DNA from: Bacillota bacterium
Lineage (GTDB): Bacteria > Bacillota > Sulfobacillia > JABLXB01
Direction: 5' to 3'
Assembly (NCBI GenBank): GCA_024653225.1
Contig: JANLGA010000001.1
Span: 18,590 to 58,666, forward strand
Length of the DNA stretch: 40,077 nt
The notes under the pieces were generated by a model that had not been told where the DNA came from, did not search any database, and saw only the letters and a list, made by a program, of their open reading frames with translations. Positions within the stretch are counted from its first letter, which is position 1, and each line of letters begins with the position of its first letter. The translations under genes were made by a program, and so were the position numbers. This document shows, piece after piece, positions 10,291-40,077 of this stretch.

Positions 10291-10330
10291 CGGTCGTCCC
10301 TCCAGTCGCTGTGTCAATCGGTCCCGCCAG

Positions 10331-15085: not shown

Positions 15086-15091
15086 ATGAGC

Positions 15092-15400
15092 CAGGCGCGT
15101 GTCAACTGCGGCCGTGCCTTCGCGGCCGCACGGATTCTCGTCAAGCAATGCGTGCGCGAGGAAGGGGTCAACCGGCCGCCGTCCGGCAAAGAGAGGGAGC
15201 CATCGGTGCGAGGCTTCCCCGGGCGACTCCGGAGGCCGCCCCGGAGCGCGGGTCGAATGAAGGTGACGCGGGAGCCGCACCTTCGAGGAGACCCAGGGAG
15301 CGCCCGATACAGCGCGCGAAGATGCGCCGTCTTCCGGCGAATCAGGGTGGTACCGCGAGAGCAACCTCTCGTCCCTGGCGGGGCGGGAGGTCAATTCTTT
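15092..15400 (+). promoter_or_regulatory. T-box riboswitch leader of alaS (Stem I, T-box antiterminator and terminator)
   Basis: - The T-box sequence is AAUCAGGGUGGUACCGCGAGAG (15340-15362). Its antiterminator has helix A1 AGGG/CCCU, the bulge UGGUACC and helix A2 GCGAGAG/CUCUCGU.
- The competing terminator is CCUCUCGUCC (15365-15374), loop CUGGCG, GGGCGGGAGG (15381-15390), then UCAAUUCUUU.
- Stem I elements are an AG bulge CAAAGAGAG (15187-15195), a distal loop AUCGGUGCGA (15202-15211), and a basal helix GAAGG (15161-15165) / CCUUC (15280-15284) flanked by GA-motif-like CGAG/GAGG. Confidence 0.9.
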
Positions 15401-15454
15401 GAGGGCCGCGGCGACTTTGCGGGTCCGCGGCCGAACGCGGGGGAGGGTAAGACG

Positions 15455-19294: not shown

Positions 19295-20395
19295 TTGCCC
19301 GAGAAGGTGACGATAAGCGTGATCAAGGCCGACGTGGGGGGTTGGGTGGGGCATTCCAGCGTGCACCCGGCCTTGATCGAGAAAGCGCGCGAGAACCTCC
19401 GGGAGAGGGGTTCGGGGCTCCTCATTGACTCCTACGTGGCCACCGTGGGGGACGACATCAACCTGATCATGACTCACAGGACCGGCGTGGACTCACCGGC
19501 CGTTCACGAGCTCGCGTGGGACACGTTCGTCGCGTGTACGGCGGTCGCTAAGGAGCTGAAGCTGTACGGCGCGGGTCAGGACCTGCTTTCCGATGCTTTC
19601 TCGGGCAACGTCAGGGGAATGGGACCCGGCGTGGCCGAGATGGAATTCGTCGAGAGGCAGGGCGAACCCGTCGTCGTATTCATGGCGGACAAGACGGAGC
19701 CGGGGGCGTGGAACCTGCCGCTGTACAGGATGTTCGCGGATCCTTTCACGACCATAGGACTGATAATAGACCCGAAGATGCACACCGGGTTCAGGTTCGA
19801 GGTGGTGGACCTCATCCGTCACAAGAAGGTGATGTTCAGCTGCCCCGAGGAACTGTACGACCTGCTCGTGTTCATCGGGGCGCCCGGAAGGTATTGCGTC
19901 AAGTCGGTCTACTCGAAGGCGCTCGGCGAGATATGCGCGACCTCCACCACGGAGAGGCTCAACCTGACGGCCGGCAGGTACGTCGGCAAGGACGACCCGG
20001 CGCTGATAGTGAGGTGCCAGAGCGGGATGCCCGCGGTGGGCGAGGCGCTCGAGGCGTTCGCGAATCCCCACCTCGTGGCGGGTTGGATGCGGGGCTCGAA
20101 CCACGGCCCGTTGATGCCGGTGTCCGCGAAAGACGCCACCCCGACCAGGTTCGACGGTCCCCCCAGGGTGGTCGCACTGGGCTTCACGCTGTGCAACGGC
20201 CGGTTGCTCGGCCCGCAGGACTTGTTCGCGGACAAGAGCTTCGACAAGGCGAGGCAGATAGCCAACGACGTGGCGCACTACATCCGGGGACTCGGGCCGT
20301 TCGAGCCGGGCAGGCTGCCCCTCGATGAAATGGAGTATACTACGCTCCCGGACGTGATGAAGAGGCTTTCGGATAGATTCGAGGACGTGGACTGA
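19295..20395 (+). CDS. fbp: Bifunctional fructose-1,6-bisphosphate aldolase/phosphatase (class V FBPase, archaeal type)
   Basis: TISVIKADVGGWVGHSSVHP, DDINLIMTHRTG, YGAGQDLLSDAFSGNVRGMGPGVAEMEF, FMADKTEPGAWNLPLYRMFADPF, GWMRGSNHGPLMPV, RFDGPPRVVALGF and EMEYTTLP are colinear with the FBP aldolase/phosphatase family. TTG start with a GGGAGG SD 8 nt upstream. Confidence 0.93.
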   Translation: MPEKVTISVIKADVGGWVGHSSVHPALIEKARENLRERGSGLLIDSYVATVGDDINLIMTHRTGVDSPAVHELAWDTFVACTAVAKELKLYGAGQDLLSDAFSGNVRGMGPGVAEMEFVERQGEPVVVFMADKTEPGAWNLPLYRMFADPFTTIGLIIDPKMHTGFRFEVVDLIRHKKVMFSCPEELYDLLVFIGAPGRYCVKSVYSKALGEICATSTTERLNLTAGRYVGKDDPALIVRCQSGMPAVGEALEAFANPHLVAGWMRGSNHGPLMPVSAKDATPTRFDGPPRVVALGFTLCNGRLLGPQDLFADKSFDKARQIANDVAHYIRGLGPFEPGRLPLDEMEYTTLPDVMKRLSDRFEDVD

Positions 20396-25731: not shown

Positions 25732-26538
25732 CTAAGAACCGGGGGTCGCCGCCGGTCCCCACGGGGCGAGCGCGCACGGCCCCGTACAGCACTTGCCGCA
25801 TATGTCGAGCGGCTCGGGCACCGAACAGTGCCGGACGAGATACTCGCCTACGACCTTCAGGTGGTCGCGGCAGGCGTCCCTTCTGAGGCCGTCCGTCGTC
25901 AGCGCCCCCACGGGGCATCGCTCGACACACGCCGAGCAGGACGCACCGGCGAAATACCCGCAAAACGACGGCCGGCTTCGTCCGGCGGCCCCCCGCGCGA
26001 GGTCCGCCGCGACCACGATGCTGGAAACCCTTCCGGCGCACCCGCGCTCTGTGATGAGCATCTGGTGCAGCCCGATTTCGCCCATCCCCGCGATCACGGC
26101 GGCGCTCTTGTGCGACCACCGGGCGCGCAGGGAGACGGGGTCGTAGTTGTGGGTGGGCTGCTGCCAGGAAGCCGCCACCCCTTCACGGGCGAAAGCCCTT
26201 TCCAGCTCCGCGCACATCAACGTGAGCAAGGCATTTGTCTCCACGTACGCCGTTCCCCATTCGGCGGCGCAGACGGTCGCGACCGCGTTCGCCCTGACGA
26301 GGTCCGCCTCGAACGGGAGGAAGAAGCATGCGACGGACTGCGCGCCCGGGAGGACCTCGGAGGGCAAGAGGTGCCCCGGGACATGCGTGTCTCGGAGGAA
26401 TTGCCAGCGGGGGTCGTCGGCTCGCGCGTAGCCGAACAATGGCTCGCGGTAACGCGTCTTCCCCCCGTGTTCCGCCGCCATGCGCCTTACGGTGCTTTCC
26501 AGCACGGCCCTGAGACGCGAGGCCTCGCTGTCCTCCAC
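25732..26538 (-). CDS. QueG-like / reductive-dehalogenase-superfamily Fe-S protein (epoxyqueuosine reductase homologue)
   Basis: SHKSAAVIAGMGEIGLHQMLITERGCAGRVSSIVVAADL followed by CSACVERCPVGAL and CGKCCTGPC cluster motifs. The GTG at 26538 is preceded by GAGGGGG 8 nt upstream. The ORF-track start at 26694 is less likely. Confidence 0.55.
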   Translation of the reverse strand: MEDSEASRLRAVLESTVRRMAAEHGGKTRYREPLFGYARADDPRWQFLRDTHVPGHLLPSEVLPGAQSVACFFLPFEADLVRANAVATVCAAEWGTAYVETNALLTLMCAELERAFAREGVAASWQQPTHNYDPVSLRARWSHKSAAVIAGMGEIGLHQMLITERGCAGRVSSIVVAADLARGAAGRSRPSFCGYFAGASCSACVERCPVGALTTDGLRRDACRDHLKVVGEYLVRHCSVPEPLDICGKCCTGPCALAPWGPAATPGS

Positions 26539-26787
26539 TTGACGTACCCCCTCATGGGTGTCCGCCGTCCGGCCCGGCAGGCCGACCGGCGCGGTCCCGC
26601 TGCCGCATTTCTGCGCGGCCTGCGGACGCACCTGCACCGGTGAATGGAACCGGCCCGCGCCGTCCCTCGTCAAACAGGCGGGACCGCGCTTCAATAATCT
26701 GGAAGGGCTCTCCCGGGAACCCCCACATCCCGGGGCCCGGCGCCGAAATAGTGTGGGGAAAAGGGTGCGAGTAGGAGGTATTGGTCC

Positions 26788-28938
26788 ATGCGCTTGTTCC
26801 GGAAATCCCTGTGCATAGCGGCTGTGCTTTCGATGGTGGTCGGCCTCGTCGGGGGGACCGCCGCGGCCCGTCCCGGCAACCCATGGGACAGTGGCTTGAA
26901 GCTGGGGGTCCTCAAGAAGGCGTTCATTGACGAGGATGAAGCGCCCTGGGCGGTCGGTTACATGGCCAAGATGAAGCTGAAGGGCATAATGCAGGGCTAC
27001 CCCGGCGGTAAGTTCATGCCCAACTCCCCGGTTTCCCGGGTGGAGCTCGTCGTGCTCGCCGTGCGCGCCAAGGGCCTGGAGGAAGAGGCGAGGCAGAGGA
27101 ACGGAGCGGTTCTGCCGTTCGGCGACGCAGAGAATATCTACCGGAAGTATCCGTGGGCGGTCGGCTATCTCGCGACAGCGGTGAGTGCCGGACTGATCCC
27201 GTCGGGGTCCGCGCCGTTCCAGCCCGAGAAGCCCGCCACGCGCCTCTGGACAGCCGAGGTCCTGATCAGGGCGATGGGCCTGGAGGACGAGGCGGAGGAG
27301 GCGATGGACGCCGATCTGCCGTACACCGACGCCGGGGAGATCCCCGACGACAAGGTCGGCTACGTAGCGGTGGCGTTGGAGCGCGGGATCATGATGGGCT
27401 ATGGCACCACGTTCAGGCCCTTCGCACCGATCCGTCGCTGTGAAGTGGCGGCCGTGCTCGACAGGATGGAGGAATCGCTGCCCCCGCTCGGGTACGAGGT
27501 GAGGGGCGTGATCACCGGCATCAACAGGACAAAGCCGGCCGTGACGATGAGGGTCTACGACAAGAAGTGGTGGAGCTTCGGCACCCTGGTCCGCTCTGCG
27601 CTTACGGGCAACGTGTTCACGGGCACCGTGACGATACCGGTGTCGGAGGACGTCCTGGTCTTGATAGACAAGCGGGTCTCGGAGTTCGAGGACCTCGAGA
27701 TCGGGTTCAGGGCGACCGTGCTCAGGAATTCCGACGGCGTCGCGGTACTGATTGATGCAAACTCCGGGGGCGCGACACCGAACTGGCCGGTCCCCGGCAC
27801 GGCCACGAAAGAGGGATCGGTGGAAGACATCACGCTGGGGACTTCGCCCAAGATCACGATCGAGGACGAGGACGGGACCGAGTGGACGTACTCGATAGCG
27901 CCGAACTGCGCCGTCTACATGGACGATGAAGAGATAGATCTCGAGGACGTGGAAGAAGGCGATTGGGTCACCCTGAGGATCGTGGACTCGAAGGTCACGA
28001 GGATCGTCGTCGAGGAAGAGGAGGAGACGGTCGAATCGGAGAAGGACGGAGAGGTCACCGAGATCAGGACCACCACCAGCCCCAAGCGGATAACCATAAG
28101 GCTGGCCGGCGGGTCAACGTTCACCGCCGCCATATCCGCCGACGTCGTGGTCAAGGAAGGCGGTCGAACAGCCTCGCTCGACGATGTGAGCGTGGGAGAC
28201 GACGTACACCTCCACCTGCGCGACGGCTACGTCGTGAGGATAGAGATCGAGGAACCGGCTGCAACCGAGTATGAGGGCGTCGTGACCTCCGTATACGCCT
28301 CCGGTTCGAGGAGGATAACCATCCGCCTGGACGACGGCAGGACCATGAGCGTGGCCGTGGCGTCCGGCGTGGTCGTCAAGTACGACGGAGCCGCCGCCAA
28401 GCTCAGCGACGTCCGGGTCGGAGACTCGGTGAAGATAACCGTGACGGGATCGCAGGTGACGAGGATTGACATCGAGCGCAGGACCGTCACGGAGCGGAGG
28501 GGAACTGTGACCCAGGTCGAAACCGGGACCTCGGCGAGGATCTGGATACGGCTCTCCGGCGGCTCGGTCGAGAGTTACCAAGTCGCTTCGAACCCGCACG
28601 TGGAGTACAAGGGCGAGGACCTCAAGCTCGACGACGTGGTCCCGGGTGACAGGGTGAAGCTCGCCATATCCGATTCGAAGGTCGGGGAGATACTGATAGA
28701 GGAAAGGCCGGTCTTCGAGACGAGCGGCACCATAACAGCCGTTGGCTCAAGCTCGACCGAGGGTCGCACCATCACCATCAAGGAATCGTCGGGCAACCAG
28801 CCCACGTACAAGGTCTCCGCGGACGCGGCGATCAAGGAAGGGACGCAGACCATATCGTTCAATGACCTGGAGCAGGGAGACAAGGTAACCCTCAGGGTGG
28901 AGGGCAACCTGGTGACCAGGATAACCGTAACGGGGTGA
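26788..28938 (+). CDS. Secreted SLH-domain protein with five to six tandem ~70-aa beta-rich repeats of unknown function
   Basis: An AGGAGG SD and a signal peptide MRLFRKSLCIAAVLSMVVGLVGGTAAA. Three SLH domains occupy aa ~45-230, followed by repeats of the form G-x-V/I-T-x-[IV]...[RK]I[TW]I[RK]...V...V......L-x-D[VL]-x-x-GD-x-V-x-[LI]......V-x-RI. Confidence 0.85.
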   Translation: MRLFRKSLCIAAVLSMVVGLVGGTAAARPGNPWDSGLKLGVLKKAFIDEDEAPWAVGYMAKMKLKGIMQGYPGGKFMPNSPVSRVELVVLAVRAKGLEEEARQRNGAVLPFGDAENIYRKYPWAVGYLATAVSAGLIPSGSAPFQPEKPATRLWTAEVLIRAMGLEDEAEEAMDADLPYTDAGEIPDDKVGYVAVALERGIMMGYGTTFRPFAPIRRCEVAAVLDRMEESLPPLGYEVRGVITGINRTKPAVTMRVYDKKWWSFGTLVRSALTGNVFTGTVTIPVSEDVLVLIDKRVSEFEDLEIGFRATVLRNSDGVAVLIDANSGGATPNWPVPGTATKEGSVEDITLGTSPKITIEDEDGTEWTYSIAPNCAVYMDDEEIDLEDVEEGDWVTLRIVDSKVTRIVVEEEEETVESEKDGEVTEIRTTTSPKRITIRLAGGSTFTAAISADVVVKEGGRTASLDDVSVGDDVHLHLRDGYVVRIEIEEPAATEYEGVVTSVYASGSRRITIRLDDGRTMSVAVASGVVVKYDGAAAKLSDVRVGDSVKITVTGSQVTRIDIERRTVTERRGTVTQVETGTSARIWIRLSGGSVESYQVASNPHVEYKGEDLKLDDVVPGDRVKLAISDSKVGEILIEERPVFETSGTITAVGSSSTEGRTITIKESSGNQPTYKVSADAAIKEGTQTISFNDLEQGDKVTLRVEGNLVTRITVTG
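27811..28935 (+). repeat. Five in-frame tandem protein repeats (~68-75 aa each) inside the SLH protein, with a sixth degenerate copy upstream (~27496-27750)
   Basis: The five units are:
- KEGSVEDITLGTSPKITIEDEDG..VEEGDWVTLRIVDSKVTRIVVEE
- GEVTEIRTTTSPKRITIRLAGG..VSVGDDVHLHLRDGYVVRIEIEE
- YEGVVTSVYASGSRRITIRLDDG..VRVGDSVKITVTGSQVTRIDIER
- RRGTVTQVETGTSARIWIRLSGG..VVPGDRVKLAISDSKVGEILIEE
- TSGTITAVGSSSTEGRTITIKESSG..LEQGDKVTLRVEGNLVTRITVTG. Confidence 0.85.
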
Positions 28939-28969
28939 ACCGCCGGCGGACTGCGGCCGGACGGGTTCG

Positions 28970-28999
28970 AGCGGGGCCGTCCTTCGGGGAACGGCCCCG
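28970..28999. terminator. Stem-loop between the convergent SLH-repeat gene and bioY
   Basis: GCGGGGCCG-UCCUUCGGGGAA-CGGCCCCGC followed by GGUUGUUCGG on the plus strand. Confidence 0.55.
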
Positions 29000-29012
29000 C
29001 GGTTGTTCGGAC

Positions 29013-29621
29013 TCAGCGGGATCGGCGGGCCGACAGGACCGGAAGGACCTTCCGCGCGAGAAGGCTCGCCGCGGCCGCCTTGATCAGGTCGCCCGGCACG
29101 AACGGCAGTACGACGGCCGGCAGTACGGCCAAGGCGGGTCTGCCGGTGAGGTGGGCGATCCTCACTGTCGCGGACGCGTAAATGACGGCGGTGCCCAGCA
29201 CCATCGAACCGAGCGTGCGGGCGAACCCGGCGTTCTTCGAGGGCCCCGCGAGGCCGCCGACGACCAGGGGCACAAGGGGAAACGCGAGGAGATACCCGCC
29301 CGACGGGCCGAGCAGGACACCCAGCCCCCCCCTCATCATGGAGAAAACGGGAACACCCGCGGCCCCGAGGGCGATGTAGGCGAGCATTGCGATGGCGCCG
29401 TCCCTCGGCCCGGCGACGGCCCCGGAGAGGAGCACGAAGAAAGTCTGCAGCGTGAACGGGACTGGGAGCTGCGGCAGGGGCACCGCCAGAACGGCCCCCG
29501 CCGCCGTGAGCGCGGCGAGCAGGGCGGGGACCGTCACCCGGGTCGCCGCAACCGCCCCGAGTCCGCCGTCGGCTGGGTCGTACGTGTTCACGTCATCACC
29601 GGCTTCGGACGCCGCGGCCAT
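29013..29621 (-). CDS. bioY: Biotin transporter BioY (ECF S-component)
   Basis: VPFTLQTFFVLLSGAVAGPRDGAIAMLAYIALGAAGVPVF...GGLGVLLGPSGGYLLAFP...LPFVPGDLIKAAAA are the BioY family hallmark motifs. The exact start is uncertain because there is no clear SD before the ATG at 29621. Confidence 0.88.
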   Translation of the reverse strand: MAAASEAGDDVNTYDPADGGLGAVAATRVTVPALLAALTAAGAVLAVPLPQLPVPFTLQTFFVLLSGAVAGPRDGAIAMLAYIALGAAGVPVFSMMRGGLGVLLGPSGGYLLAFPLVPLVVGGLAGPSKNAGFARTLGSMVLGTAVIYASATVRIAHLTGRPALAVLPAVVLPFVPGDLIKAAAASLLARKVLPVLSARRSR

Positions 29622-29644
29622 CCGGCCGCGCGTGTATACACGAA

Positions 29645-29700
29645 ATGATACCAGCCGGCAGCCTAAACGTCAACTGCCGTGCCGCGCCAAGGTTAACGTT
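29645..29700 (-). promoter_or_regulatory. bioY promoter with an overlapping BirA-operator-like inverted repeat
   Basis: On the minus strand, TTGACG (29673-29668) is followed by a 17-nt spacer and TGgTATCAT, an extended -10 (29653-29645). The inverted repeat AACGTCAAC (29666-29674) / GTTAACGTT (29692-29700) matches at 8 of 9 positions, has a 17-nt spacer, and covers the -35. It lies between the birA stop and bioY. Confidence 0.6.
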
Positions 29701-30682
29701 AGTCCGGCGGGTCCGGACGGAGGGTGACGTCCCCGGACAGGAATCGCCGGATCTCGCCGTCGTCCGTCTTGACCACTAACGCGCCGTCGCCGTGAACGGC
29801 CACCGCCGTTCCCTCGAACGTCTCGTTGATGCCCCTGACGGTGACCCTCTTTCCGATAGTGGCGGAGTACGACGCCCACTCCGACACCACCGACTCGGGG
29901 CCTCCTTCCAGGAAGAGCGAGTATAGTTCGTCGAGTTCTTTCAGGACCGCTCTGAGCACTGCGGCCCGGTCAACGCGCTTCCCAAGCTCGGCATCGAGCG
30001 AGGTATGAAGGCCGGCGGCGGCGCCGGGCAGCGGTCTCGTCCCCAGGTTGACGTTTATGCCGATACCGATCACAACGAAGTCCACTTGGTCGGCTTCGGC
30101 GACCATCTCGGCCAGGATCCCGCAGACTTTCCGGCCGCCCACCAGGACGTCGTTCGGCCACTTGATCTCCGGCCTCAGTCCGAGTGACGACGCTATGGCC
30201 TTCGCCACAGCCACCGCCGCGAGGAGGGTGAGCCCCTGCACCTCGGCCGGCGCGAGCCGGGGTCGGAGCAGCACCGAAAAGAGGAGGCCGGCCCCCGGAG
30301 GGCATTCCCACCGCCGGCCCAATCGGCCCTTCCCCGAAGTCTGTTCCTCGGCCACGAGTACGGTGCCCTCGGCTGCGCCCTCCGCCGCCAAGGATTTCAG
30401 GAGGTCGTTGGTGGAGGTGGTCGTCGCCAGGTACCGGACCTTGGACCCGATCACGCGGGTGTTGAGTCCCGCCCTGACCACTTCGGGGAGGAGCTTGTCA
30501 GGGGCCGCCACGAGGGCGTAGCCCGACCGTGGCTGCCCGATTATGGTGTAACCGTCGCGACGGAGGGCCGTGACGTGTTTCCACACGGCGGTGCGGGAGA
30601 TGCCGAGCAGGGAGCTCAGCCGCTCCCCGGAGACGAACCTTCCCCGCTCTTCCCTGAGCGCCCTGAGCACTTCGTGTTTCAC
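29699..30682 (-). CDS. birA: Bifunctional biotin--[acetyl-CoA-carboxylase] ligase / biotin-operon repressor (class II BirA)
   Basis: An N-terminal winged HTH (LSSLLGISRTAVWKHVTALRRDGYTI), the biotin-binding loop GKGRLGRRW, KWPNDVLV, and a C-terminal SH3-like domain. The GTG start overlaps the upstream aminotransferase stop (GTGA at 30679-30682). Confidence 0.93.
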   Translation of the reverse strand: MKHEVLRALREERGRFVSGERLSSLLGISRTAVWKHVTALRRDGYTIIGQPRSGYALVAAPDKLLPEVVRAGLNTRVIGSKVRYLATTTSTNDLLKSLAAEGAAEGTVLVAEEQTSGKGRLGRRWECPPGAGLLFSVLLRPRLAPAEVQGLTLLAAVAVAKAIASSLGLRPEIKWPNDVLVGGRKVCGILAEMVAEADQVDFVVIGIGINVNLGTRPLPGAAAGLHTSLDAELGKRVDRAAVLRAVLKELDELYSLFLEGGPESVVSEWASYSATIGKRVTVRGINETFEGTAVAVHGDGALVVKTDDGEIRRFLSGDVTLRPDPPD

Positions 30683-31908
30683 CGGGAACTACCCGCGATC
30701 TCGGCGACCGCCCTCTCGATGCGGGCGAGCGCTTCCCTGATGTTGGCCTCGGAGTTCGCAAATGAGACCCTCAAGTATCCCTCGCCGGCCGCGCCGAAGG
30801 CCGACCCGGGGACCAGTGCCACGCCGGTCTTCTCCAGCAGCCTCATGGCCAGGTCGGACGACGTCATGCCGATACCCTTCGCCGACGGGAACGCGTAAAA
30901 GGTGGCGGCGGGTGCGCGGCACGAGAACCCCGGTATACGGTTGAATCCCGATACGACGAGGTCGCGCCGCCTCTTGTACTCGAAGACCATGGTGGAGACG
31001 CAGTCCTGCGGGCCCGTGAGCGCGGCGAGCGCCGCCCGCTGGGAGACCGTGGTGACGCTCGCCACCATGTGTTCCTGCACGCGCGTCATGGCCCGGATCA
31101 CGTGGGGTCGCGCTATGACGTAGCCGACCCTCCAGCCGGTCATGGAGTAGGTCTTGGAGAAGGAGTTCACGGTTATGACCCAGTCGCGCACCTCCGGCAG
31201 CGACGCCGGGCTGAAATGCTCGCCCTCGAACAGGATGCTCTCGTACACCTCGTCGGATACGAGGTAGGCGCCGGCGTCCGCGCACATCCGGGCTATCTCC
31301 ACCAGGTTCTCCCTGGACGTGACCCCTCCCGTGGGGTTGGAGGGATTGTTGACGATTACGGCCTTGGTCCTCGGCGTCATCGCCGCGCGGACAGCGTCGG
31401 GGTCGAGACCGAAGCCGTCCTCTTCGCGGATCCGCACGTACACGGGCGTGGCGCCGGCCAGCTGGGCGTGGCCGGTGTAATTGATCCACCCGGGATCCGG
31501 GATCAACACCTCGTCGCCGTCGTCCACGAGGGTGAGCATCAGCGCGGCCAGGGCGCCCATCGCACCGTGGGTGATTATGACCTCCGTGGTGGGATCGGCC
31601 TCGATCGAGTTTTGCCTGCGGGCCTTCTCCGCCACAGCGGCGCGCAGTGCGGGGTCTCCCATGCTGGGGGCATACTTGGTCCAGCCGCACTCGGCGGCTT
31701 CGGCCGCCGCCCTCACTACGTGAGGCGGGGTGGGGAAATCGGGCTCGCCGATTTCAAGATGGATGACGTCCTTCATCGCCAGCGCCATGTTGAATATCCT
31801 GCGGATCTCGGGCTGCTTGATGCGCCCGGCCCTCGTCGAGATGGGGAAACCGTCCACTTCGAATCCCTCCCCAGGCACTTCTCGGGTCATTGGCAATGAG
31901 ACCTGCAT
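30679..31908 (-). CDS. Class I/II PLP-dependent aminotransferase (aspartate/aromatic aminotransferase-like)
   Basis: IHLEIGEPDFPTP, NNPSNPTGGV, and SFSKTYSMTGWRVGY, which contains the PLP lysine motif. Start at the ATG 31908 or the ATG 31890. Neither has an SD. Confidence 0.88.
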   Translation of the reverse strand: MQVSLPMTREVPGEGFEVDGFPISTRAGRIKQPEIRRIFNMALAMKDVIHLEIGEPDFPTPPHVVRAAAEAAECGWTKYAPSMGDPALRAAVAEKARRQNSIEADPTTEVIITHGAMGALAALMLTLVDDGDEVLIPDPGWINYTGHAQLAGATPVYVRIREEDGFGLDPDAVRAAMTPRTKAVIVNNPSNPTGGVTSRENLVEIARMCADAGAYLVSDEVYESILFEGEHFSPASLPEVRDWVITVNSFSKTYSMTGWRVGYVIARPHVIRAMTRVQEHMVASVTTVSQRAALAALTGPQDCVSTMVFEYKRRRDLVVSGFNRIPGFSCRAPAATFYAFPSAKGIGMTSSDLAMRLLEKTGVALVPGSAFGAAGEGYLRVSFANSEANIREALARIERAVAEIAGSSR

Positions 31909-31999
31909 ACGTCCAGTATATTCTTTCGTGGCCCGGCCTGTCCAGGAGCGCCCGAGGGCGCGGCGGGAAGGTAGTCCGAGCAGACCCGGCGAAGAACGG

Positions 32000-33667
32000 A
32001 TGGGGTTTCACCCGGTGTGCTATTCCGGGAGACTCCCGGGAATCAGTCTTGGGGGGATTGACCTGGCCGAAGAATCCGGAGCCCCGCGGCACTCCCTGGA
32101 GGGCGGGGTGGGTGGGGCGGCCGCGGTGATATCGGTGCTCGCCGCCGCCGCGAAGGTGGCCGGATTCCTAAGGGATCGGACCCTGGCCGTCGCTTTCGGC
32201 GTCGGCGCGGAATCCGACGCATACATGGTGGCGGCCTGGGTCCCGGGCTTGATCGTCACACTGGTCACGAGCGGAGTGGTCACAGGCCTTCTCCCGGTGT
32301 TCACGGGCATGACGGCCGTCGGCCGGAGAGACAGGGCCTGGCGCGTGGCCTCCGCTGTGTTGAGCGGAACGGTCCTCGGGTGCGCCGTCCTGACGGCGTT
32401 CGGGATGGCATTCCCGCAATCGATCGTGCTCGCGCTCGCCCCGGGATTCCCGCTGGAGACGGCCGCGCTGACGACCAAGCTCCTCCGCATTTCCCTCCCG
32501 GCCATGCTGTTCATCGGCTTGTTCGCGGTGGAGTCGGCCGTCCTCCAGTCTCACAAGCGGTTCACCCTCTCCGCGGCCGGTCCAGTCGTGGTCAATGCCT
32601 GCACCATCGCGGGCATCGTCCTCCTATCGCGGCGGATGGGGATCGCCGGGGCGATGCTCGGGACGGTCGCGGGATACGCCGCGCAGTCGCTGCTGTTGCT
32701 ACCCTCCGTGGCTTGGCGCTGGGGGCGGTTCTCGCCTGGAGCGGGCGTACGCGACCCGGAGTTTCGCGAGGTAATGCGGCTGGCTGGCCCCGTGCTGGTC
32801 CTGAGCGTCTTCTCGCACGCTTCGGGCGTGATCGAGAAGTACCTCGCCTCGGGACTGACCCCGGGCAGCGTGGCGGCGCTTTCGTTTGCGAACAAGCTCG
32901 TCCTGCTTCCGGCCGGGCTCTTCTCCGCCGCGCTCTCCACGGCCATGTTTCCCCGCATGGCGGAGGCCTCCGCCAGGGAAGACCGCGACTCGCTCCGTCG
33001 TTTCGTGTTGGGGGGATCCCGAGCCCTCGCCTACCTGGCGATCCCGGCGGCCGTGGGGCTCGCCGCGATGAGGCGACCGATAGTGAGGGCCTTGTTCGAG
33101 AGCGGCGCCTTCGGGAGTGCCGCGACGGAAGCCACCGCCGCCGCCGTGCTGTGGTACTCGGCCGGTATGCTGTTCTGGTGTGTCAACCCGGTCCTGGAGC
33201 GGGCGTTCGCCGCCACGAAGGATACGATGACGCCGTCGGCTGCGGGCATTGCGCGGGTCGCGGCGTTCGGCCTCGCGGCCGCTCCCCTCTCGCGCGCCCT
33301 GGGCCACGAGGGCATCGCGCTGGCCGCCTCGGCGACGGCGGGACTCGCCTGCATCTTTCTGTGGGTGGTGCTGGCGTCGAGGCTCCGGATCGAGATCGGA
33401 CGCGCCGAGGTGTTATCGTTCCTCGTGCGAGTCGCGATCGGCTGCGGAGCGATGGTGGCGTCCACCACGTGGGCGCTGCGACGGGTCGCGATCCTCGGCC
33501 TCGACGGGGGCGTCGTCGCGACCCTTGCGTGTGTCGGGGCGGGGGGTGCAGTGTACCTGGTGACGACGTACGCGTTGGGGGTTGCCGAGGCTCGCGATCT
33601 CGCGCGGGCGGCCGCGGCTGGAATCCGGCGGATGCGCGGGCGATGGGGCCGGCGACCGGCGGCATAA
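32000..33667 (+). CDS. murJ: Lipid II flippase MurJ/MviN (MOP superfamily)
   Basis: AAKVAGFLRDRTLAVAFGVGAESDAYMVAAWVP is the MurJ N-terminal signature. About 14 TM segments. The start is uncertain. The GTG at 32108, with GGAGGG 4 nt upstream, is as good as the ATG at 32000. The ORF-track start at 31730 lies inside the divergent aminotransferase gene. Confidence 0.85.
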   Translation: MGFHPVCYSGRLPGISLGGIDLAEESGAPRHSLEGGVGGAAAVISVLAAAAKVAGFLRDRTLAVAFGVGAESDAYMVAAWVPGLIVTLVTSGVVTGLLPVFTGMTAVGRRDRAWRVASAVLSGTVLGCAVLTAFGMAFPQSIVLALAPGFPLETAALTTKLLRISLPAMLFIGLFAVESAVLQSHKRFTLSAAGPVVVNACTIAGIVLLSRRMGIAGAMLGTVAGYAAQSLLLLPSVAWRWGRFSPGAGVRDPEFREVMRLAGPVLVLSVFSHASGVIEKYLASGLTPGSVAALSFANKLVLLPAGLFSAALSTAMFPRMAEASAREDRDSLRRFVLGGSRALAYLAIPAAVGLAAMRRPIVRALFESGAFGSAATEATAAAVLWYSAGMLFWCVNPVLERAFAATKDTMTPSAAGIARVAAFGLAAAPLSRALGHEGIALAASATAGLACIFLWVVLASRLRIEIGRAEVLSFLVRVAIGCGAMVASTTWALRRVAILGLDGGVVATLACVGAGGAVYLVTTYALGVAEARDLARAAAAGIRRMRGRWGRRPAA

Positions 33668-33694
33668 GATTCGCGGAGCGGCAGAACAATATCC

Positions 33695-35383
33695 TTGCCG
33701 AACAACGCAAGGCAGGGATTTCCGCCAGTGTCAAGGATTCGCCTCACGGCGGCGGCTTCATTCGTGTGCATGATCCTCCTTCTCGCCAGGCTGTTCACGA
33801 TCCAGGTGCTGGGGTCGCGGCGGCTGTCGTCCGCCGCCGTCGCCCAAAGGGCGTACGGCGTACAGCTGGAGCCGGCGAGGGGACAAATCCTCGATAGGAA
33901 CCGCGTTCCGCTCACGGACTTCCGTCGGCTCTCCGCAGTGGTTTTCCCCTGCTTGGTCCGCGACAAGGAACGGGCGTCGGGGATCGTCTCCTCGGTCCTG
34001 GGGCTCAATAGAGAAGCCGCCGAGGAGGCGTTCTCCGGGCCTGCGCCCGCGAAGTTGAGGGAAGGCGTCACGGCGGACGAGGCCGAAGCGCTGCGGTCGG
34101 CGGGCGTGGAGGGGGTGTTGATAGTCGAGGAGAGCCGGCGATACTCGCGGACCTCGCTGGCACGCCACGTGGTCGGGTACACGGATGCTTCGGGACGGGG
34201 AGTTGCGGGGATCGAGCGGGCATTCGACGACCAGCTCCGGGGAGAGGCCGCGAAATCCCTGGCGGTGTGCGTGGATGCCGCGGGCAGGCCGTTGACGGGA
34301 GTCGGATACCGGCTCCTCGGACGCGGCACACCGGGGGGCGGGCTGGACGTGGTACTGACGATTGACTGCAAAGTCCAGGCAGCCTGCGAACGGGTTCTCG
34401 ACGAGACATTCGAGTGGGACGGGCCCGGGGCGTGCAAGGGCGCCGCCGTAGTGGTCCTTGACGCGCGTACCGGGGAGATCCTGGCGATGGCCGCCAGGCC
34501 CCAATACGACCAGGACCGGGTCGGGGATCACATCGCGGACCCGCGCGCCCCGCTGCTGAACCGCTGCGTCAGGCCGTACGTGCCCGGTTCCGTGCTGAAG
34601 GTGGTGACCGCGGCCGCGGCGATCGAAGAGGGCCGCGTGGGCGTGGGTGAGCGCTTCGTTTGCCCGGGCTGGGTGCAGGTGGGGCCGACGAGGCTGGAGT
34701 GCTCCAGCGCGGTCGCCGGCGGGCACGGCGTGCTCGGTTTCAGGGAGGCGCTGGCCCATTCGTGCAACGTCGCCTTCGCCGAGGTGGGCCGGAGGATCGG
34801 TGCCGAAACGCTCATCGGGTACATTCGCCGATTCGGCTTCGGAAGGGAGACGGGGGCAGTGTCGTCCGGAGAGAGTCCCGGGTCGGTCCCGGATCCCCTG
34901 GGCGCGACCACGGGTGACGTCGCGGGCATCTCGATCGGCCAATGGAAGCTCACCGCCACCCCGCTGCAGGTGGCACAGGCGATGACGGCCGTCGTCAACT
35001 CGGGGACGATGCTCCCCGTCACGCTCGTGAAGGAGATCTCGACCCCCGGCGGGCGCGCGGTGAGGGTATTTCCGCGCCCGAAGCCGGTCCGCGTGGTGTC
35101 GCCATCCACCGCCGCCTGGGTCCGCAGAGGGTTGCTCGACGCCGTGACCTACGGAAGCGGCCGAGCGGCGATGGTCGCCACGGTCGGCTCCGCGGGGAAG
35201 ACGGGCTCTGCCGAGACGGGGAGGATCTCTGGGGGCGGGAGCGTGCTTCACGCGTGGTTCGCGGGCTACGCCCCCGCTCTCGCGCCGAAGTACATCTGCT
35301 GCGTTCTGGTGGAAGAGGGCGGGTACGGCGGGGCTGTCGCTGCCCCGATGTTCAGGTCTATAATGGAAGAGATACTGCGGTAA
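33695..35383 (+). CDS. Class B penicillin-binding protein (transpeptidase; FtsI/MrdA/SpoVD family, no PASTA domain)
   Basis: An N-terminal TM segment (AASFVCMILLLARLF), a dimerisation domain (RGQILDRNRVPL), SxxK in PGSVLKVV, SxN in HSCNVAF, and KTG in AGKTGSAE. Start at the TTG 33695 or the GTG 33728. Confidence 0.9.
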   Translation: MPNNARQGFPPVSRIRLTAAASFVCMILLLARLFTIQVLGSRRLSSAAVAQRAYGVQLEPARGQILDRNRVPLTDFRRLSAVVFPCLVRDKERASGIVSSVLGLNREAAEEAFSGPAPAKLREGVTADEAEALRSAGVEGVLIVEESRRYSRTSLARHVVGYTDASGRGVAGIERAFDDQLRGEAAKSLAVCVDAAGRPLTGVGYRLLGRGTPGGGLDVVLTIDCKVQAACERVLDETFEWDGPGACKGAAVVVLDARTGEILAMAARPQYDQDRVGDHIADPRAPLLNRCVRPYVPGSVLKVVTAAAAIEEGRVGVGERFVCPGWVQVGPTRLECSSAVAGGHGVLGFREALAHSCNVAFAEVGRRIGAETLIGYIRRFGFGRETGAVSSGESPGSVPDPLGATTGDVAGISIGQWKLTATPLQVAQAMTAVVNSGTMLPVTLVKEISTPGGRAVRVFPRPKPVRVVSPSTAAWVRRGLLDAVTYGSGRAAMVATVGSAGKTGSAETGRISGGGSVLHAWFAGYAPALAPKYICCVLVEEGGYGGAVAAPMFRSIMEEILR

Positions 35384-35433
35384 ACGGATTTGATTCCGCC
35401 GGCGTGCCTGCGGCGTCGAGACGGTGAGCGGAC

Positions 35434-36474
35434 TTGGGGCGGATACCGGCCGGCGAAGCCTTCCCGGCGAGAATCAGGGGCGTGACCATGGTGGCGGCGG
35501 CCGCCGCGATCTGGGGTTCGATCGGGGTGACCGGCAAGGTGTTATTCTCCCGGGGCCTGGACGCGGGGCTGGTGTCATCCGCGAGGGTGCTCCTCGCGTT
35601 CCTCATGATGGCCTCCGCCATGCTCTGTTCGAGGCGCGACCTGCTCAGGATCGGGTTCCGCGACGCCCTGTTGTTCCTCTGCTTCGGGGTGTTCGGCACG
35701 GGCGCCTACACCCTGCTCTACATGCTCGCAATAGAGAAGACCACCGCGTCGCTCGCCGTCGTGCTTCTGTACACGGCGCCGTTCTTCGCGATCCTGGTCT
35801 CCCGCGTGGTGTTCGGTGAACCCCTGACCCGCGCCAAGGGCGTCGGCCTGTTGCTCGCCGCCGCCGGGGTCGCAATGTGCGTCGGGGGCCGCACGTTTTC
35901 TCTCACTCGCGCGGACCTGCACGGGATCGCGTGCGGCCTGGGCTCCGGATTGGCCTACGGGCTATTCGGGGTGTTCGGCAAGATCGGCTTGAAGCGGCAC
36001 GACTACCGGACGGTCGTGACTTATTCGCTGGGGTTCGCCGCGGTCTTCCTCGCTGCGTTCAGGCCGCCCTGGGCGGTGCCGGCGGTGACCCGCGACCCGA
36101 GGGCGTGGGCGGCGCTCCTCTACCTGGCCGCAGGACCGACGGTGCTGTCGTACTGTCTCTACCATGTCGGGCTCCAGTCGGTCGAAGCGGGCGTGGCGAG
36201 CATAGTGGCCACGGTCGAGGTCGTCGTCGCGCTGTTGTTCGGTAGGGTCCTCCTCGGCGAAAGGATGTCCCCGGTCCAGCTCCTCGGCGCCGCGGCGGTC
36301 ATGGCGGCGGTCGCGTCAGTCCAGCCGGGTGGTTCCTCCGGCCGGCCGGCGTTGCAGGGATCCGTGTTTCGTCAGCAGAATTCTGGCACGGCATGCCGGC
36401 GGCCTTCGGACTGTCGAGCCGAATGGTCGCACGGTTCAAAGTCGAGGGAGAGAAGGGGAGGAGATCATGGCTGA
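35434..36474 (+). CDS. EamA/DMT-superfamily transporter (10 TM) with a low-complexity C-terminal tail
   Basis: Two EamA halves, AAAAIWGSIGVTGKVLF... and ...LYLAAGPTVLSYCLYHVGLQ. The last ~55 aa are Gly/Arg/Ser-rich and may not be functional. The start is uncertain (TTG 35434 or ATG 35488). Confidence 0.8.
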   Translation: MGRIPAGEAFPARIRGVTMVAAAAAIWGSIGVTGKVLFSRGLDAGLVSSARVLLAFLMMASAMLCSRRDLLRIGFRDALLFLCFGVFGTGAYTLLYMLAIEKTTASLAVVLLYTAPFFAILVSRVVFGEPLTRAKGVGLLLAAAGVAMCVGGRTFSLTRADLHGIACGLGSGLAYGLFGVFGKIGLKRHDYRTVVTYSLGFAAVFLAAFRPPWAVPAVTRDPRAWAALLYLAAGPTVLSYCLYHVGLQSVEAGVASIVATVEVVVALLFGRVLLGERMSPVQLLGAAAVMAAVASVQPGGSSGRPALQGSVFRQQNSGTACRRPSDCRAEWSHGSKSRERRGGDHG

Positions 36475-37747
36475 CCTGAGGGAGCGTCTCCGCATAGATT
36501 CCAGGGAGCTCGGGGCCATCAACGACCTGCTCACCGACCCGAACAACAGGGCGGTCTCCGCGATACTGGACGTCGTCGCCAAGTACGGCACGCCGGACGA
36601 GATAAACCGTAAGGCCCGCGAGGCGAGGAAACTCGAGAATCTGCTGGGCAGGCTGAAGAAGATGGATTCCCCGTACCTCGCGGACGTCGAGTGGCTGATC
36701 GAACAGCGGGATTCCGGCGCGTTCATAACGGTCACCCAGTATAGGAAGAAGGTGCTCGGCGACAGGGCCGTCGGGATGAAGTTCAAGGACGATTTCGCTG
36801 TCACGCTGGAGATAAGCGCCGCCCAGTATTTCCCGTGGATCAGGCTGGAGGCCGAGCAGTCCATAGCGAACGGCGAGCTGATGCCCGCCCGCTTCATCAG
36901 GGTGCGGAAAATGAAAGAACAGGAGAAAGACGACGGCGACATCGTGGCGTTCGCGGCGGCCATGCAGGTGATGGGGGCCAGCTACGTCGAGACCCTCGAC
37001 ACCAAGGGAACGGACGGCTCGAATGTCCACCTCGGCGGCCCCGCGACGATCACGGGGTACTTCGGCGGCATAGGGGAGCCCAACGACTACGCGTTGAAGT
37101 GGATAGACGAATACCTATACTACTACACCAACTACGGCGTCAGGCAGGTGCTCAATACTAACCCCGGGACCGTCTTGCTGAGCTACATCATCTACAAGCT
37201 GGGCATTGACAACGAGTTCAAGATCTCGGTGTTCATGGGGAACGACAATCCGTACGCCGCGCTGTGGACCCTCATAGGGGCCAAGATGTTCTCCCGGCCG
37301 GACGGAACTACGCCGCTCGTGGGGTTCAATTGGAGCAATTCGATAAACAACGAGACCATGGAAATCACCGCCGAGCTTCGGAAGGCGCTCGGCTTCGAGA
37401 ACGAGATCCGGTTCGAACATCACATCACGGAGGCGTACAGGAGCATCGTGCGGCAGCCCTACGACAGGAGGGCCGAGCTGGTGGCCGTCGCCGACCACGT
37501 GAAGAACATCTCGGCGAAGCACGAGGGCGGCGACGTGAAGACGGAGATGGAGATCGAGGCGCAGGGCGGCCACTGCTCCGACATACTGGACTACTTCAGG
37601 GACAAGTCGGAGATCATCGCCAGCGGCGACTGGGACGCAGTGACCCGCAACTACCTGGACAAACATGCGGCCGTGAACAACACCGCACGGGCCCTGACGG
37701 AACACGGGCTCTCGTTCCTGGCGGCCCCCAACCTTCACCACAGGTAG
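36467..37747 (+). CDS. Conserved-looking hypothetical protein, 426 aa, family not recognised
   Basis: A strong SD, GGGGAGGAG, lies 5 nt before the ATG at 36467, and the start overlaps the EamA stop. The composition is normal and globular, rich in Y/N/K/F/W in a GC-rich genome. The gene has its own terminator. It is the only frame here without Arg/Pro bias. Confidence 0.75.
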   Translation: MADLRERLRIDSRELGAINDLLTDPNNRAVSAILDVVAKYGTPDEINRKAREARKLENLLGRLKKMDSPYLADVEWLIEQRDSGAFITVTQYRKKVLGDRAVGMKFKDDFAVTLEISAAQYFPWIRLEAEQSIANGELMPARFIRVRKMKEQEKDDGDIVAFAAAMQVMGASYVETLDTKGTDGSNVHLGGPATITGYFGGIGEPNDYALKWIDEYLYYYTNYGVRQVLNTNPGTVLLSYIIYKLGIDNEFKISVFMGNDNPYAALWTLIGAKMFSRPDGTTPLVGFNWSNSINNETMEITAELRKALGFENEIRFEHHITEAYRSIVRQPYDRRAELVAVADHVKNISAKHEGGDVKTEMEIEAQGGHCSDILDYFRDKSEIIASGDWDAVTRNYLDKHAAVNNTARALTEHGLSFLAAPNLHHR

Positions 37748-37765
37748 CACGGGATCGTGGGATCC

Positions 37766-37805
37766 GCGCGGGCGGCCGGCATCCGGCGCCCGCGCTCATT
37801 TTCCT
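37766..37805 (+). terminator. Rho-independent terminator of the 426-aa gene
   Basis: GCGCGGGCGGCCGG-CAU-CCGGCGCCCGCGC followed by UCAUUUUCCUC. Confidence 0.8.
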
Positions 37806-37894
37806 CGGGACAGGCACGCGCGGGCGCGGCTGAAATATAATTTAAAGCTGCACTCCCGACTCACGCCACAACCGCCGTCAGGAGGTGACTCCCA

Positions 37895-38236
37895 GTGGTG
37901 GGGCTGCTATCCCTCTTGGAGCAGTCGCTTTGCAGGTGCCTCGGATTCGCCGCTTCGTACGTGAACGCTTCGAACACGTTTCCCCAGCCGCTGTCGGAAA
38001 GAGAGGAAGCCATGTACCTCGACCTCTTGGACAGGGGCGACAGGCACGCGCGCAACGTGCTCATCGAGCGCAACCTCCGCCTGGTCGCCCACATCGTGAA
38101 AAAGTTCGACGGGAGCGTCGAAGACCCCGAGGACTTGATATCCATCGGCACCGTCGGCCTCATCAAGGCGATCGGGACCTTCAACCAGAAGAAGGGAACC
38201 CGGCTGGCAACCTATGCCGCGCGGTGCATCGAGAAC
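37895..38236 (+). pseudogene. sigK: 5' fragment of the sporulation sigma factor pro-sigma-K gene (pro-peptide plus regions 1.2-2.4 only)
   Basis: GTG start with GGAGG 9 nt upstream. [114 protein letters not shown] is colinear with pro-SigK. After codon 114 the ORF reads on to 38440 without sigma-factor similarity, and regions 3-4 are absent from the window. Confidence 0.85.
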
Positions 38237-38282
38237 GACGTGTCGGGTATAAGTGCCCGGCGGAAGCGGTTTCCAGATCGTG

Positions 38283-38312
38283 TTGACCTTTCCTCGGGGG
38301 CCGATGTATACT
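38283..38312 (+). promoter_or_regulatory. SigA-type promoter of pckA
   Basis: TTGACC (38283-38288), an 18-nt spacer, then TATACT (38307-38312). It lies ~35 nt upstream of the first in-frame ATG of pckA. Confidence 0.6.
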
Positions 38313-38346
38313 CTGAACAGCCCGAGCGGTTTCACGAGTTCTCGTC

Positions 38347-39930
38347 ATGGGATGTGATTCGATGGGCTCGCTTGGCCAGGTTTGCCGCCCCGATCCGCTT
38401 CGTCACCGACTCTCCCGCCTGGGATGCGGCCACCTCATAGTGAACCCGTCTCCCGCCGAGCTCCGGGATATGGCCCGCAAGGACGAAATCACCACCTGCT
38501 ACGGCAGCGCTTGCTACATCACCAAGGTCAGGAACAGGAGCGCCAAGCAGTCATACATCGTCTCCGGCCAAGTCCCGGTGGGCGTGAGACAACCGGTCAT
38601 AGAAGCCGAGACGGCGGCGGGTGTGGTCGGGCGCGTCCATTCGTACCTCTCGGACAAGACGGTGATACGGCTCGACAGGTCGCTTTGCGCGAACCCCGAG
38701 GCGCGCATCAACTGTCGCCTGTATATAACCGCGGAGTACGCGAGGATCCCATACATGTGGCACGATACCCTGTTCCCGGCGCCCGCCGTCGGGTCACCCG
38801 ACGTGGTATCGGTGTACGTGCCCGAATGGCCGGAGCGCATGATACTGATCTACCCCGCGGACCGGGTCACCTACATACTGGGGACCGACTACTTCGGCGA
38901 ATGCAAGAAGTCTTTCCTCAGGATGGCAATGTACATCGCCAAGCAGCGGGGTTGGCTTGGGTTCCACGCGGGCTCGAAGGTCGTCCGGGTGGAGGACGGG
39001 GACGGCTCGACCCGGGAAGTCGGATTCATAATGTTCGGGCTCAGTGGCACCGGCAAGACGACCCTCACCATGCACGATCACGGCCTGGCGTACCCCGAGG
39101 GTGTCGCGATACGCCAGGACGACGTCGTGCTCATGAGGAGCGACGGGTACTGCTACGGTACGGAAAACGGGTTCTTCTTCAAGACGGAAGGACTCGAGCC
39201 GTCCCAAACCGTGCTGTGGAACGCCGCGACGAGGGCCGATGCCATACTCGAGAACGTGAAAGTCGGGGAGGACGGGTCAGTCGATTTCCTCGATTGCTCG
39301 CTCACTTCGAACGGCCGCGGCGTGGTGGCCAGGGCCAACGTTGCCCACACCGACGGCACCTGCGACCTCCGGAGGGCCGACAAGATCGTGTTCATCACCA
39401 GGCGGAACGACATCGTGCCGCCCGTGGCGAAGCTCGACCCCGAGCGGGCCGCGGCGTTCTTCATGTTGGGGGAGTCAATTGAGACCTCGGCCGGCGACCC
39501 GTCGCGGGCCGGGCAGTCCAAGCGCGAAGTGGGCACCAATCCATTCATAGTGGGTCCGGAGCACGAGGAGGGCAACACGCTCCTCGAGTTCCTGCGCGCC
39601 TCGCCGCAGATAGAGTCGTTCCTGCTGAATACCGGGGCGGTGGGCGAGAACACGGGTTTCAAGGGTCGCAAGATAACCGTCGGCGACTCCACACACATCA
39701 TGCTGCAGATCGCCAGGGGCGGGATCGCCTGGAAGAGGGACCCCGATTGGGGGTACCTGGTGCCGGAGGCCGTCGAGGGGATGGACGCGGAGGCGTACGA
39801 TCCGAGGAGGTACTACTCGGCGGCCGAGTACCGCGACAGGACGGAGAAACTCCGGAAGGAGAGGATCGCGTGGCTCGCGCAGTTCCCGGGCCTCAGGAGC
39901 GAGATCGTCCGTTCCATCGAGTGCCGCTAG
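38347..39930 (+). CDS. pckA: Phosphoenolpyruvate carboxykinase (ATP)-like
   Basis: [13 protein letters not shown] aligns with the conserved N-terminal NPS/NLS..EL block of ATP-PEPCKs. RSAKQSYIV resembles RSPKDKFIV. The P-loop [12 protein letters not shown] is present, as are [17 protein letters not shown] and FMLGES. The central region is divergent. The start is uncertain (ATG 38347 or 38362, less likely GTG 38440 or ATG 38470). Confidence 0.8.
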
Positions 39931-39966
39931 CCGTCGTCGTTTTCGCACCCGCGCGCGGCGAATAAG

Positions 39967-39995
39967 AATCACCCCGAGAGGGGTGATTTCGTTTG
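39967..39995 (+). terminator. Rho-independent terminator of pckA
   Basis: AAUCACCCC-GAGA-GGGGUGAUU followed by UCGUUUG. Confidence 0.8.
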
Positions 39996-40077
39996 TCCCA
40001 CGGGAAGGATCGGCCGCCCGAACCGCGGGGCCGGCGGATGCGCCTGGAAGTGGAGCCCGGCGATCCGGGGCCCGGCG

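Follow-up and report, generated by a model that had tools for sequence, protein, structure and literature searches.

A sigK gene split by a probable 3.3-kb "mini-skin" element carrying pckA in an uncultured lineage of Bacillota

The stretch of DNA considered here, called the window below, comprises 40,077 nucleotides of contig JANLGA010000001.1 (positions 18,590 to 58,666, forward strand) in the Bacillota assembly GCA_024653225.1. It holds the 5' half of the sporulation sigma factor gene sigK, followed by pckA, which encodes an ATP-dependent phosphoenolpyruvate carboxykinase (ATP-PEPCK). We consider it very probable that sigK is split after codon 114 by a 3,334-bp sigK intervening (skin) element of non-prophage type, a "mini-skin", which is excised in the mother cell to restore sigK. 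The mother-cell setting of this excision is suggested by analogy with split sigK genes that have been studied experimentally.

The open reading frame (ORF) at 37895-38440 (forward strand) starts with GTG and encodes 181 amino acids, with the ribosome-binding site AGGAGGTGA at 37880-37888 ahead of the start. At 64% identity (E = 3e-47), its residues 12-116 match residues 12-115 of Bacillus subtilis pro-sigma-K, and the alignment extends no further. As the criterion for SigK we used a full-length match to the equivalog profile TIGR02846 above its cut-off of 298.65 bits. The 5' half stays below this value (167.1 bits, E = 4.2e-49) and covers positions 6-127 of the 227 profile positions only, with Pfam Sigma70_r2 found in it. 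The sigK 5' segment, the equivalent of spoIVCB, occupies 37895-38238 and comprises the pro-peptide and regions 1.2-2.4, spanning codons 1-114 plus the first two bases for Glu-115. Similarity to SigK ends at residue 116, and the rest of the ORF (38239-38440, forward strand) is an out-of-frame read-through tail of 67 codons without homology, which is element DNA and not sigK. A second sigK sequence is absent from the window in any frame (tblastn queries: full-length SigK and its C-terminal half; best E = 2.9). An earlier first-pass annotation of this DNA had reported residues 1-114 only, a break at 38237 and no sequence of regions 3-4. The alignment and the profile match, which stop in mid-protein, and the tblastn searches bear this out, and the break coincides with the predicted crossover dinucleotide at 38237-38238 (see below).

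In the public annotation, the sigK 5' half (window 37898-38440) is a 180-amino-acid "sigma-70 family RNA polymerase sigma factor" (MCR4397379.1), whose read-through tail overlaps the pckA protein MCR4397380.1 (window 38362-39930). Mis-annotation of split sigK genes of this kind has been described by Galperin et al. (10.1101/2022.02.25.481979).

MCR4397379.1 was also the top database protein for the ORF; it is the same ORF on a 59,445-bp contig of a metagenome-assembled genome (MAG), and the source contig therefore reaches past the window. The sequence downstream of the window was read from a metagenome contig of the Joint Genome Institute (JGI 3300038743; 57,816 bp; L001 below), which was reached via a neighbouring 426-amino-acid protein. 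L001 is 99.98% identical to window positions 26467-40077 (3 mismatches in 13,611 bases) and goes on downstream of the window end; window coordinates equal L001 coordinates plus 26466. Its gene table lists, on a single strand, a Sigma70_r2 protein (181 amino acids), PEPCK_ATP, an ORF of 70 amino acids, a protein of 490 amino acids with the domains Resolvase, Recombinase and Zn_ribbon_recom, and a Sigma70_r4 protein of 107 amino acids (L001 15150-15473, on the sigK strand). Near L001 position 15100, the sequence GAGCCGAGATCGAGATCTTGATGTACCTGCGG codes for EILMYLRSARK, which is the continuation expected for region 2.4/3. The sigK 3' segment at L001 15107-15473 (window-equivalent 41573-41939, off-window) lies on the same forward strand as the 5' half (L001 11429-11772).

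Both ends of the intervening DNA carry related short sequences. The attL core CGAGAACGA at 38230-38238 stands in the context TGCATCGAG-AACGA-CGTG, and the attR core CGAGATCGA at L001 15098-15106 (window-equivalent 41564-41572, off-window) in the context GAGCCGAG-ATCGA-GATCTTG, both on the forward strand. Crossover is inferred at GA, the dinucleotide that opens the Glu-115 codon and the only one common to the elements of L001, L002 and L022 (the latter two are introduced below) that restores CIENEILM; attL and attR share AACGA in L002 and GAGAT in L022. The predicted attB joint would be TGCATCGAGAACGA joined to GATCTTGATGTACC (longer form CGCGGTGCATCGAGAACGAGATCTTGATGTACCTGCGG), and the predicted attP joint GGAGCCGAGATCGA joined to CGTGTCGGGTATAAG (longer form CTAGGAGCCGAGATCGACGTGTCGGGTATAAGTGCCC). 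In-silico joining after the shared GA yields an in-frame SigK of 236 amino acids, an intact pro-sigma-K, which scores 347.5 bits on TIGR02846 (profile 7-226 of 227), exceeds the cut-off and holds both Sigma70_r2 and Sigma70_r4. Its N-terminal pro-sequence precedes a YV-N--FPQPLS motif and aligns with B. subtilis residues 12-30. Since a pro-sequence is present, processing of the SpoIVFB type is expected, as in B. subtilis. The locus thus has what characterizes a split sigK, namely two halves in direct orientation, an interrupted reading frame, and a short shared junction sequence that restores the ORF. The first-pass annotation had suggested to look elsewhere for a 3' fragment beginning near EILMHLR, for a serine recombinase next to it, and for a short sequence shared with 38225-38250. 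The fragment was found in L001 with the recombinase adjoining, and the two cores with their GA are the shared sequence.

The insertion point can be compared with that of B. subtilis, for which AATGA has been given as the recombination core (PMC10745906). This corresponds to AACGA at the Asn-Glu codons of the window locus, and judging by the alignment, AATGA probably lies at the identical codon position in B. subtilis. Since AAT-GA likewise reads as Asn-Glu, the two insertion points appear to be homologous.

On the sigK strand, the element is ordered attL, promoter-like site, pckA, hairpin, small ORF, large serine recombinase and attR. According to the L001 gene table it has 3 ORFs and no transfer or phage genes; its content of pckA, a 70-amino-acid ORF and a recombinase is not prophage-like. 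The recombinase (490 amino acids; L001 13736-15208, window-equivalent 40202-41674, forward strand) shows the domains Resolvase (123 bits), Recombinase (72 bits) and Zn_ribbon_recom (50 bits), and its motif IYVRVSSDEQ aligns with the catalytic-serine region of the TP901-1 integrase. The gene abuts attR, which makes it a SpoIVCA-like large serine recombinase at one of the element's edges. It starts 125 bp past base 40077, and the earlier statement that no recombinase is nearby is correct inside the window and fails just beyond it, because the window ends before the gene. No stop codon interrupts the recombinase ORF ahead of attR, and it continues, in a frame other than that of sigK, through 34 codons of the sigK 3' half; the recombinase of L002 likewise reads about 29 codons into the sigK 3' half, while that of L022 does not. 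As the frame runs past attR, excision would replace the C-terminal tail of the recombinase.

A small ORF lies immediately ahead of the recombinase gene (forward strand; 39993-40077 within the window, L001 13527-13739, ending at window-equivalent 40205) and shares 4 nt with the start of that gene. It encodes 70 amino acids from TTG at 39993, or 55 amino acids from ATG at 40038. Positional counterparts upstream of related recombinases in 11 loci have a core of about 30 residues in common, with the consensus xxxVxxVxxGxxEEAxxALxRAxRLLxxWxL. Because its position matches that of Skr and its size that of CD1234 (see below), the small ORF is a candidate recombination directionality factor.

A syntenic relative (GCA_013178305.1 and a Logan assembly; L002/L003) has flanking genes in common with the window locus on both sides, namely those for BioY, BirA, an aminotransferase, MurJ, a penicillin-binding protein (PBP) and EamA upstream, and those for a HAD hydrolase, a response regulator, T2SSE, a prepilin peptidase, an M20 peptidase and DegS downstream. 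Its element of 1,969 bp has the same arrangement of small ORF, recombinase (64.5% identical) and sigK 3' half, and pckA is absent; the SigK halves of this relative are 69% and 82% identical to those of the window locus. A further element, L022, measures 2,524 bp. In ten truncated SigK relatives, which belong to several lineages, similarity is lost directly behind ARCIEN[DE], and the tails are unrelated.

Some of these loci are organized differently. In L004 10001-20435 (Caldinitratiruptor microaerophilus, AP025628.1) and in L017, the recombinase lies on the opposite strand beside the sigK 5' half, as in B. subtilis. The L004 element exceeds 10 kb, with a cargo resembling defence and mobile elements (a FitA/PIN toxin-antitoxin pair, ArdC, HEPN/nucleotidyltransferase, AbiEii, a second resolvase and a methyltransferase). 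The sigK 5' halves of L013 10001-20537 (CM136180.1, a chromosome of 4.3 Mb; P0068) and of L015/L016 (P0006) break at ARCIENE, and both a serine recombinase and a 3' half are absent within 10 kb downstream. The neighbours of these halves look cellular (glutaminase, AgrB, GGDEF and PFOR; beta-lactamase, an RRM protein, peptidase M3 and PBP1A), and L013 and L015/L016 have in common a 395-amino-acid protein without a Pfam match. It is these loci, unlike the window, that really fit the description of an atypical split.

Between pckA and the small ORF stands a terminator-like hairpin, AATCACCCC-GAGA-GGGGTGATT followed by TCGTTTG (39957-39997, forward strand; dG -23 kcal/mol, z = -4.0). Its 23-nt core AATCACCCCGAGAGGGGTGATTT (window 39967-39989) is unique in the window, with 0 matches expected in shuffles, and recurs identically in L002/L003 at 10492-10514, 3 nt ahead of the TTG of the small ORF. 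The core is kept while the surrounding DNA is much less conserved, the recombinases of both elements being 64.5% identical as stated. Because the hairpin is present in a relative that lacks pckA, it is part of the recombination module, and the idea that it is merely the pckA terminator was rejected on the same ground. On the simplest reading, it is an intrinsic terminator shielding the recombination module, and doubles as the terminator of pckA in the present element. Transcription of the module by read-through from the sigK promoter, conceivable as the genes are co-oriented, is disfavoured, since the conserved terminator-like hairpin intervenes. The 3' arm of the hairpin, GGGGTGA, could double as the Shine-Dalgarno sequence of the small ORF, and the hairpin might mask this ribosome-binding site besides terminating transcription.

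The pckA gene (38347-39930, forward strand) is the cargo of the element. Alternative starts have been annotated at 38362 (NCBI, 522 amino acids) and at 38470 (JGI). From the ATG at 38347, the protein scores 572.7 bits on the subfamily profile NF006821 (cut-off 369), aligned from residue 28, and 557.3 bits when translated from the start at 38470. A start at 38347, as given by the first-pass annotation, or at the NCBI position 38362 appears plausible. Pfam PEPCK_ATP matches with 253 bits, and the protein has the P-loop GLSGTGKT. With 103 bits vs 590, it stays below the cut-off of the classical equivalog TIGR00224, and pckA is therefore assigned to a divergent ATP-PEPCK subfamily. The sigma-70-type, promoter-like site TTGACC-18-TATACT upstream of pckA (38283-38312, L001 11817-11846, forward strand), noted before, was recovered by the scan with 10 of 12 consensus positions; it is a consensus match only, one site being observed vs 0.5 expected. 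In a composition check for recent foreign origin, pckA is indistinguishable from host genes (GC content at third codon positions, GC3, 0.85). The nearest pckA found, in a search that finds close relatives only, is 77% identical and comes from a Bacillota MAG with another upstream context, followed by Acidobacteriota at 58%. Comparison of the two elements suggests that pckA was either inserted between attL and the recombination module, or lost in the relative L002/L003. A second gluconeogenic gene, for a class V fructose-1,6-bisphosphate aldolase/phosphatase (PF01950, 599.8 bits), lies at window 19295-20392 (forward strand), 18 kb upstream of pckA.

Based on this dataset, we hypothesize that the recombinase, together with the small protein as directionality factor, would recombine attL and attR at GA in the mother cell. 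A circle of 3.3 kb with attP, pckA, the small ORF and the recombinase gene would be released and sigK restored, and pro-sigma-K would then be processed as in Bacillus, while the forespore chromosome would retain the element. The hairpin most likely stops transcription of sigK and pckA ahead of the recombination module, and pckA may have been inserted later as cargo between attL and this module. It is a far more speculative idea, and one that we regard as unlikely, that the cargo is not incidental: excision would move pckA onto a non-replicating circle just as sigma-K switches on, or else the cargo would keep the element from being lost, with the hairpin in addition masking the ribosome-binding site of the small ORF and thereby timing excision. 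If true, pckA excision would link late sporulation to a changed gluconeogenic capacity; in the alternative version, the element could not be lost without loss of pckA.

Several points weigh against excision of the element as proposed. The identity between attL and attR in the L001 element is short (CGAGA-N-CGA), and the downstream half of the locus was read from the near-identical contig L001 and not from the window's own assembly. Profile scans give no family match for the small ORF, pairwise BLAST similarity between the small ORFs of L001 and L003 is insignificant, and the suggested role as directionality factor is based on position and on a weak motif at the level of the family. A mother-cell promoter for the recombination module was not recognised. 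Excision is deduced from sequence and analogy, and the host is an uncultured organism known as a MAG.

The upstream region of sigK (37836-37888, forward strand) holds, besides the ribosome-binding site given above, an AT-rich TATAAT box at 37836-37841, for which no -35 match is seen on reading the sequence. An ATATAA-like box is the sole common feature in an alignment of the sigK upstream regions of the relatives, and a convincing mother-cell promoter was not seen in this alignment.

Of the competing explanations, the one that survives best accepts the structure as described and dispenses with the developmental switch, the element being either a sporulation-independent integrative element or frozen with sigK silenced. 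We leave it a small share of the probability. It would be in line with such a view that no sporulation-specific promoter was identified, that the recombination module is set off from the sigK promoter by a terminator-like hairpin, and that the organism is uncultured. On the other hand, the same position and syntenic flanks in a distant relative point to vertical inheritance within sigK and not to recent mobility, the element has no transfer or phage genes, and all experimentally studied sigK interruptions with a large serine recombinase excise in the mother cell (PMC5025042, PMC6957869, PMC10745906).

The first-pass annotation had listed an atypical split, a decayed relic and an assembly chimera as possible explanations. 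A relic, with sigma-K no longer needed and a 5' fragment left beside pckA, could account for a window that contains only the 5' half with an ORF running into unrelated sequence, and for an NCBI annotation as merely a "sigma-70 family" protein. We find it highly improbable, as the 3' half is intact and in register 3.3 kb downstream, the composite lies above the SigK equivalog cut-off and the recombinase ORF is of full length with all domains; moreover, the split persists in the relative with SigK halves as divergent as 69% and 82% identity, and this argues for long-term selection on both. A mis-join at about 38237 would look alike in that homology is lost at a single base, and is next to impossible given that the junction is identical in the MAG contig of MCR4397379.1 and in the JGI contig with its 3 differences in 13,611 bases, that L002/L003 (NCBI and Logan assemblies) is broken at the same dinucleotide, so that 4 assemblies agree on the junction, and that the flanking genes remain syntenic to either side of the element.

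From the atypical split, which had been spelled out as a very large element, an inversion-type rearrangement or a recombinase at the far end, only the last survives. A distant 3' half might have been suspected because the remaining 1.8 kb of the window lacks it and because L004, L013, L015 and L017 show none within 10 kb or before the contig ends, and is practically dismissed by L001, where the distance from the break to the 3' half is 3,334 bp, both halves share a strand and the cores are in direct orientation. The locus had seemed atypical because a housekeeping-type gene abuts the break; pckA is the cargo inside a small element, and the window ends early.

The window is otherwise ordinary chromosome. 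It includes the gene of an SLH/beta-helix surface protein of 1,768 amino acids (window 7-5313, forward strand), an ilv/leu cluster on the reverse strand (6944-14731) for a TPP enzyme, dihydroxy-acid dehydratase, isopropylmalate dehydrogenase, an aconitase-family subunit and LeuA, and alaS (window 15086-18118). Rfam and tRNA scans of the window gave no matches.

These findings suggest that late sporulation control in an uncultured, high-GC lineage of Bacillota uses the classical mechanism of a rearranged sigK in nearly its smallest form. The 180-amino-acid "sigma-70 family" protein of the public MAG is half of sigK. The 3.3-kb element and its relative of 1,969 bp are additions at the small end of the known size range, and indicate that a minimal recombination unit can acquire a metabolic gene. 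The conserved small ORF and the conserved hairpin are candidate control parts.

Among known systems, the skin element of B. subtilis has in common with the present locus a split sigK, a large serine recombinase (SpoIVCA) and a small gene that abuts or overlaps the recombinase start, which encodes the directionality factor in B. subtilis (skr; PMC6957869) and a candidate for that role in the window locus; Skr has 64 amino acids, and its gene overlaps the spoIVCA start (PMC6957869). In contrast, the B. subtilis element is prophage-like, with 48 kb and 67 ORFs, whereas the window element has 3.3 kb, 3 ORFs and no phage genes, and spoIVCA lies beside the 5' half on the opposite strand, whereas the recombinase of the window locus lies beside the 3' half on the same strand. 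In Clostridioides difficile, the recombinase CD1231 and CD1234 (72 amino acids) are necessary and sufficient for excision, with cell-type specificity coming from CD1234 (PMC5025042). The skinCd element resembles the window element in combining a large serine recombinase with a protein of about 70 amino acids, and differs in its size (14.6 kb), its insertion site in sigK, its opposite orientation and a SigK without a pro-sequence. The gin element in gerE of Bacillus cereus ATCC 10987 (GirC/GirX) is excised at mid-sporulation, GirX having 42 amino acids (PMC5595907). Like the window element it is no prophage, its essential content being a serine recombinase and a tiny directionality factor (PMC5595907); unlike it, gin interrupts gerE and not sigK, and has three recombinase genes.

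The closest parallels are found among the 15 split sigK genes listed by Galperin et al. (2022), with skin elements from 2.6 to 48 kb (10.1101/2022.02.25.481979, main text and Table S7). Skin elements have only a SpoIVCA-like recombinase in common, and spoIVCA is usually immediately upstream of spoIIIC (10.1101/2022.02.25.481979). The small elements of Sulfobacillus acidophilus TPY (2.6 kb), Alkaliphilus metalliredigens (3.5 kb), Thermacetogenium phaeum (3.6 kb) and Pelotomaculum thermopropionicum (4.2 kb) (10.1101/2022.02.25.481979) are, by their published description, like the window element in having a few kb and 2-4 ORFs. The recombinase of S. acidophilus has 487 amino acids and lies beside the sigK 3' half on the sigK strand (10.1101/2022.02.25.481979), and that of the window locus, with 490 amino acids, takes the same position. 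These small elements and gin show that prophage-like content is not universal for skin elements. Unlike the catalogued small elements, the window element carries pckA, a gene of central metabolism, and the L002/L003 element of 1,969 bp is smaller than any published one, the minimum being 2.6 kb. The general understanding of skin elements stays as it was; elements of a few kb with the recombinase beside the 3' half were already published, and the modest additions are the pckA cargo, a relative of less than 2 kb, the conserved hairpin and the family of small ORFs.

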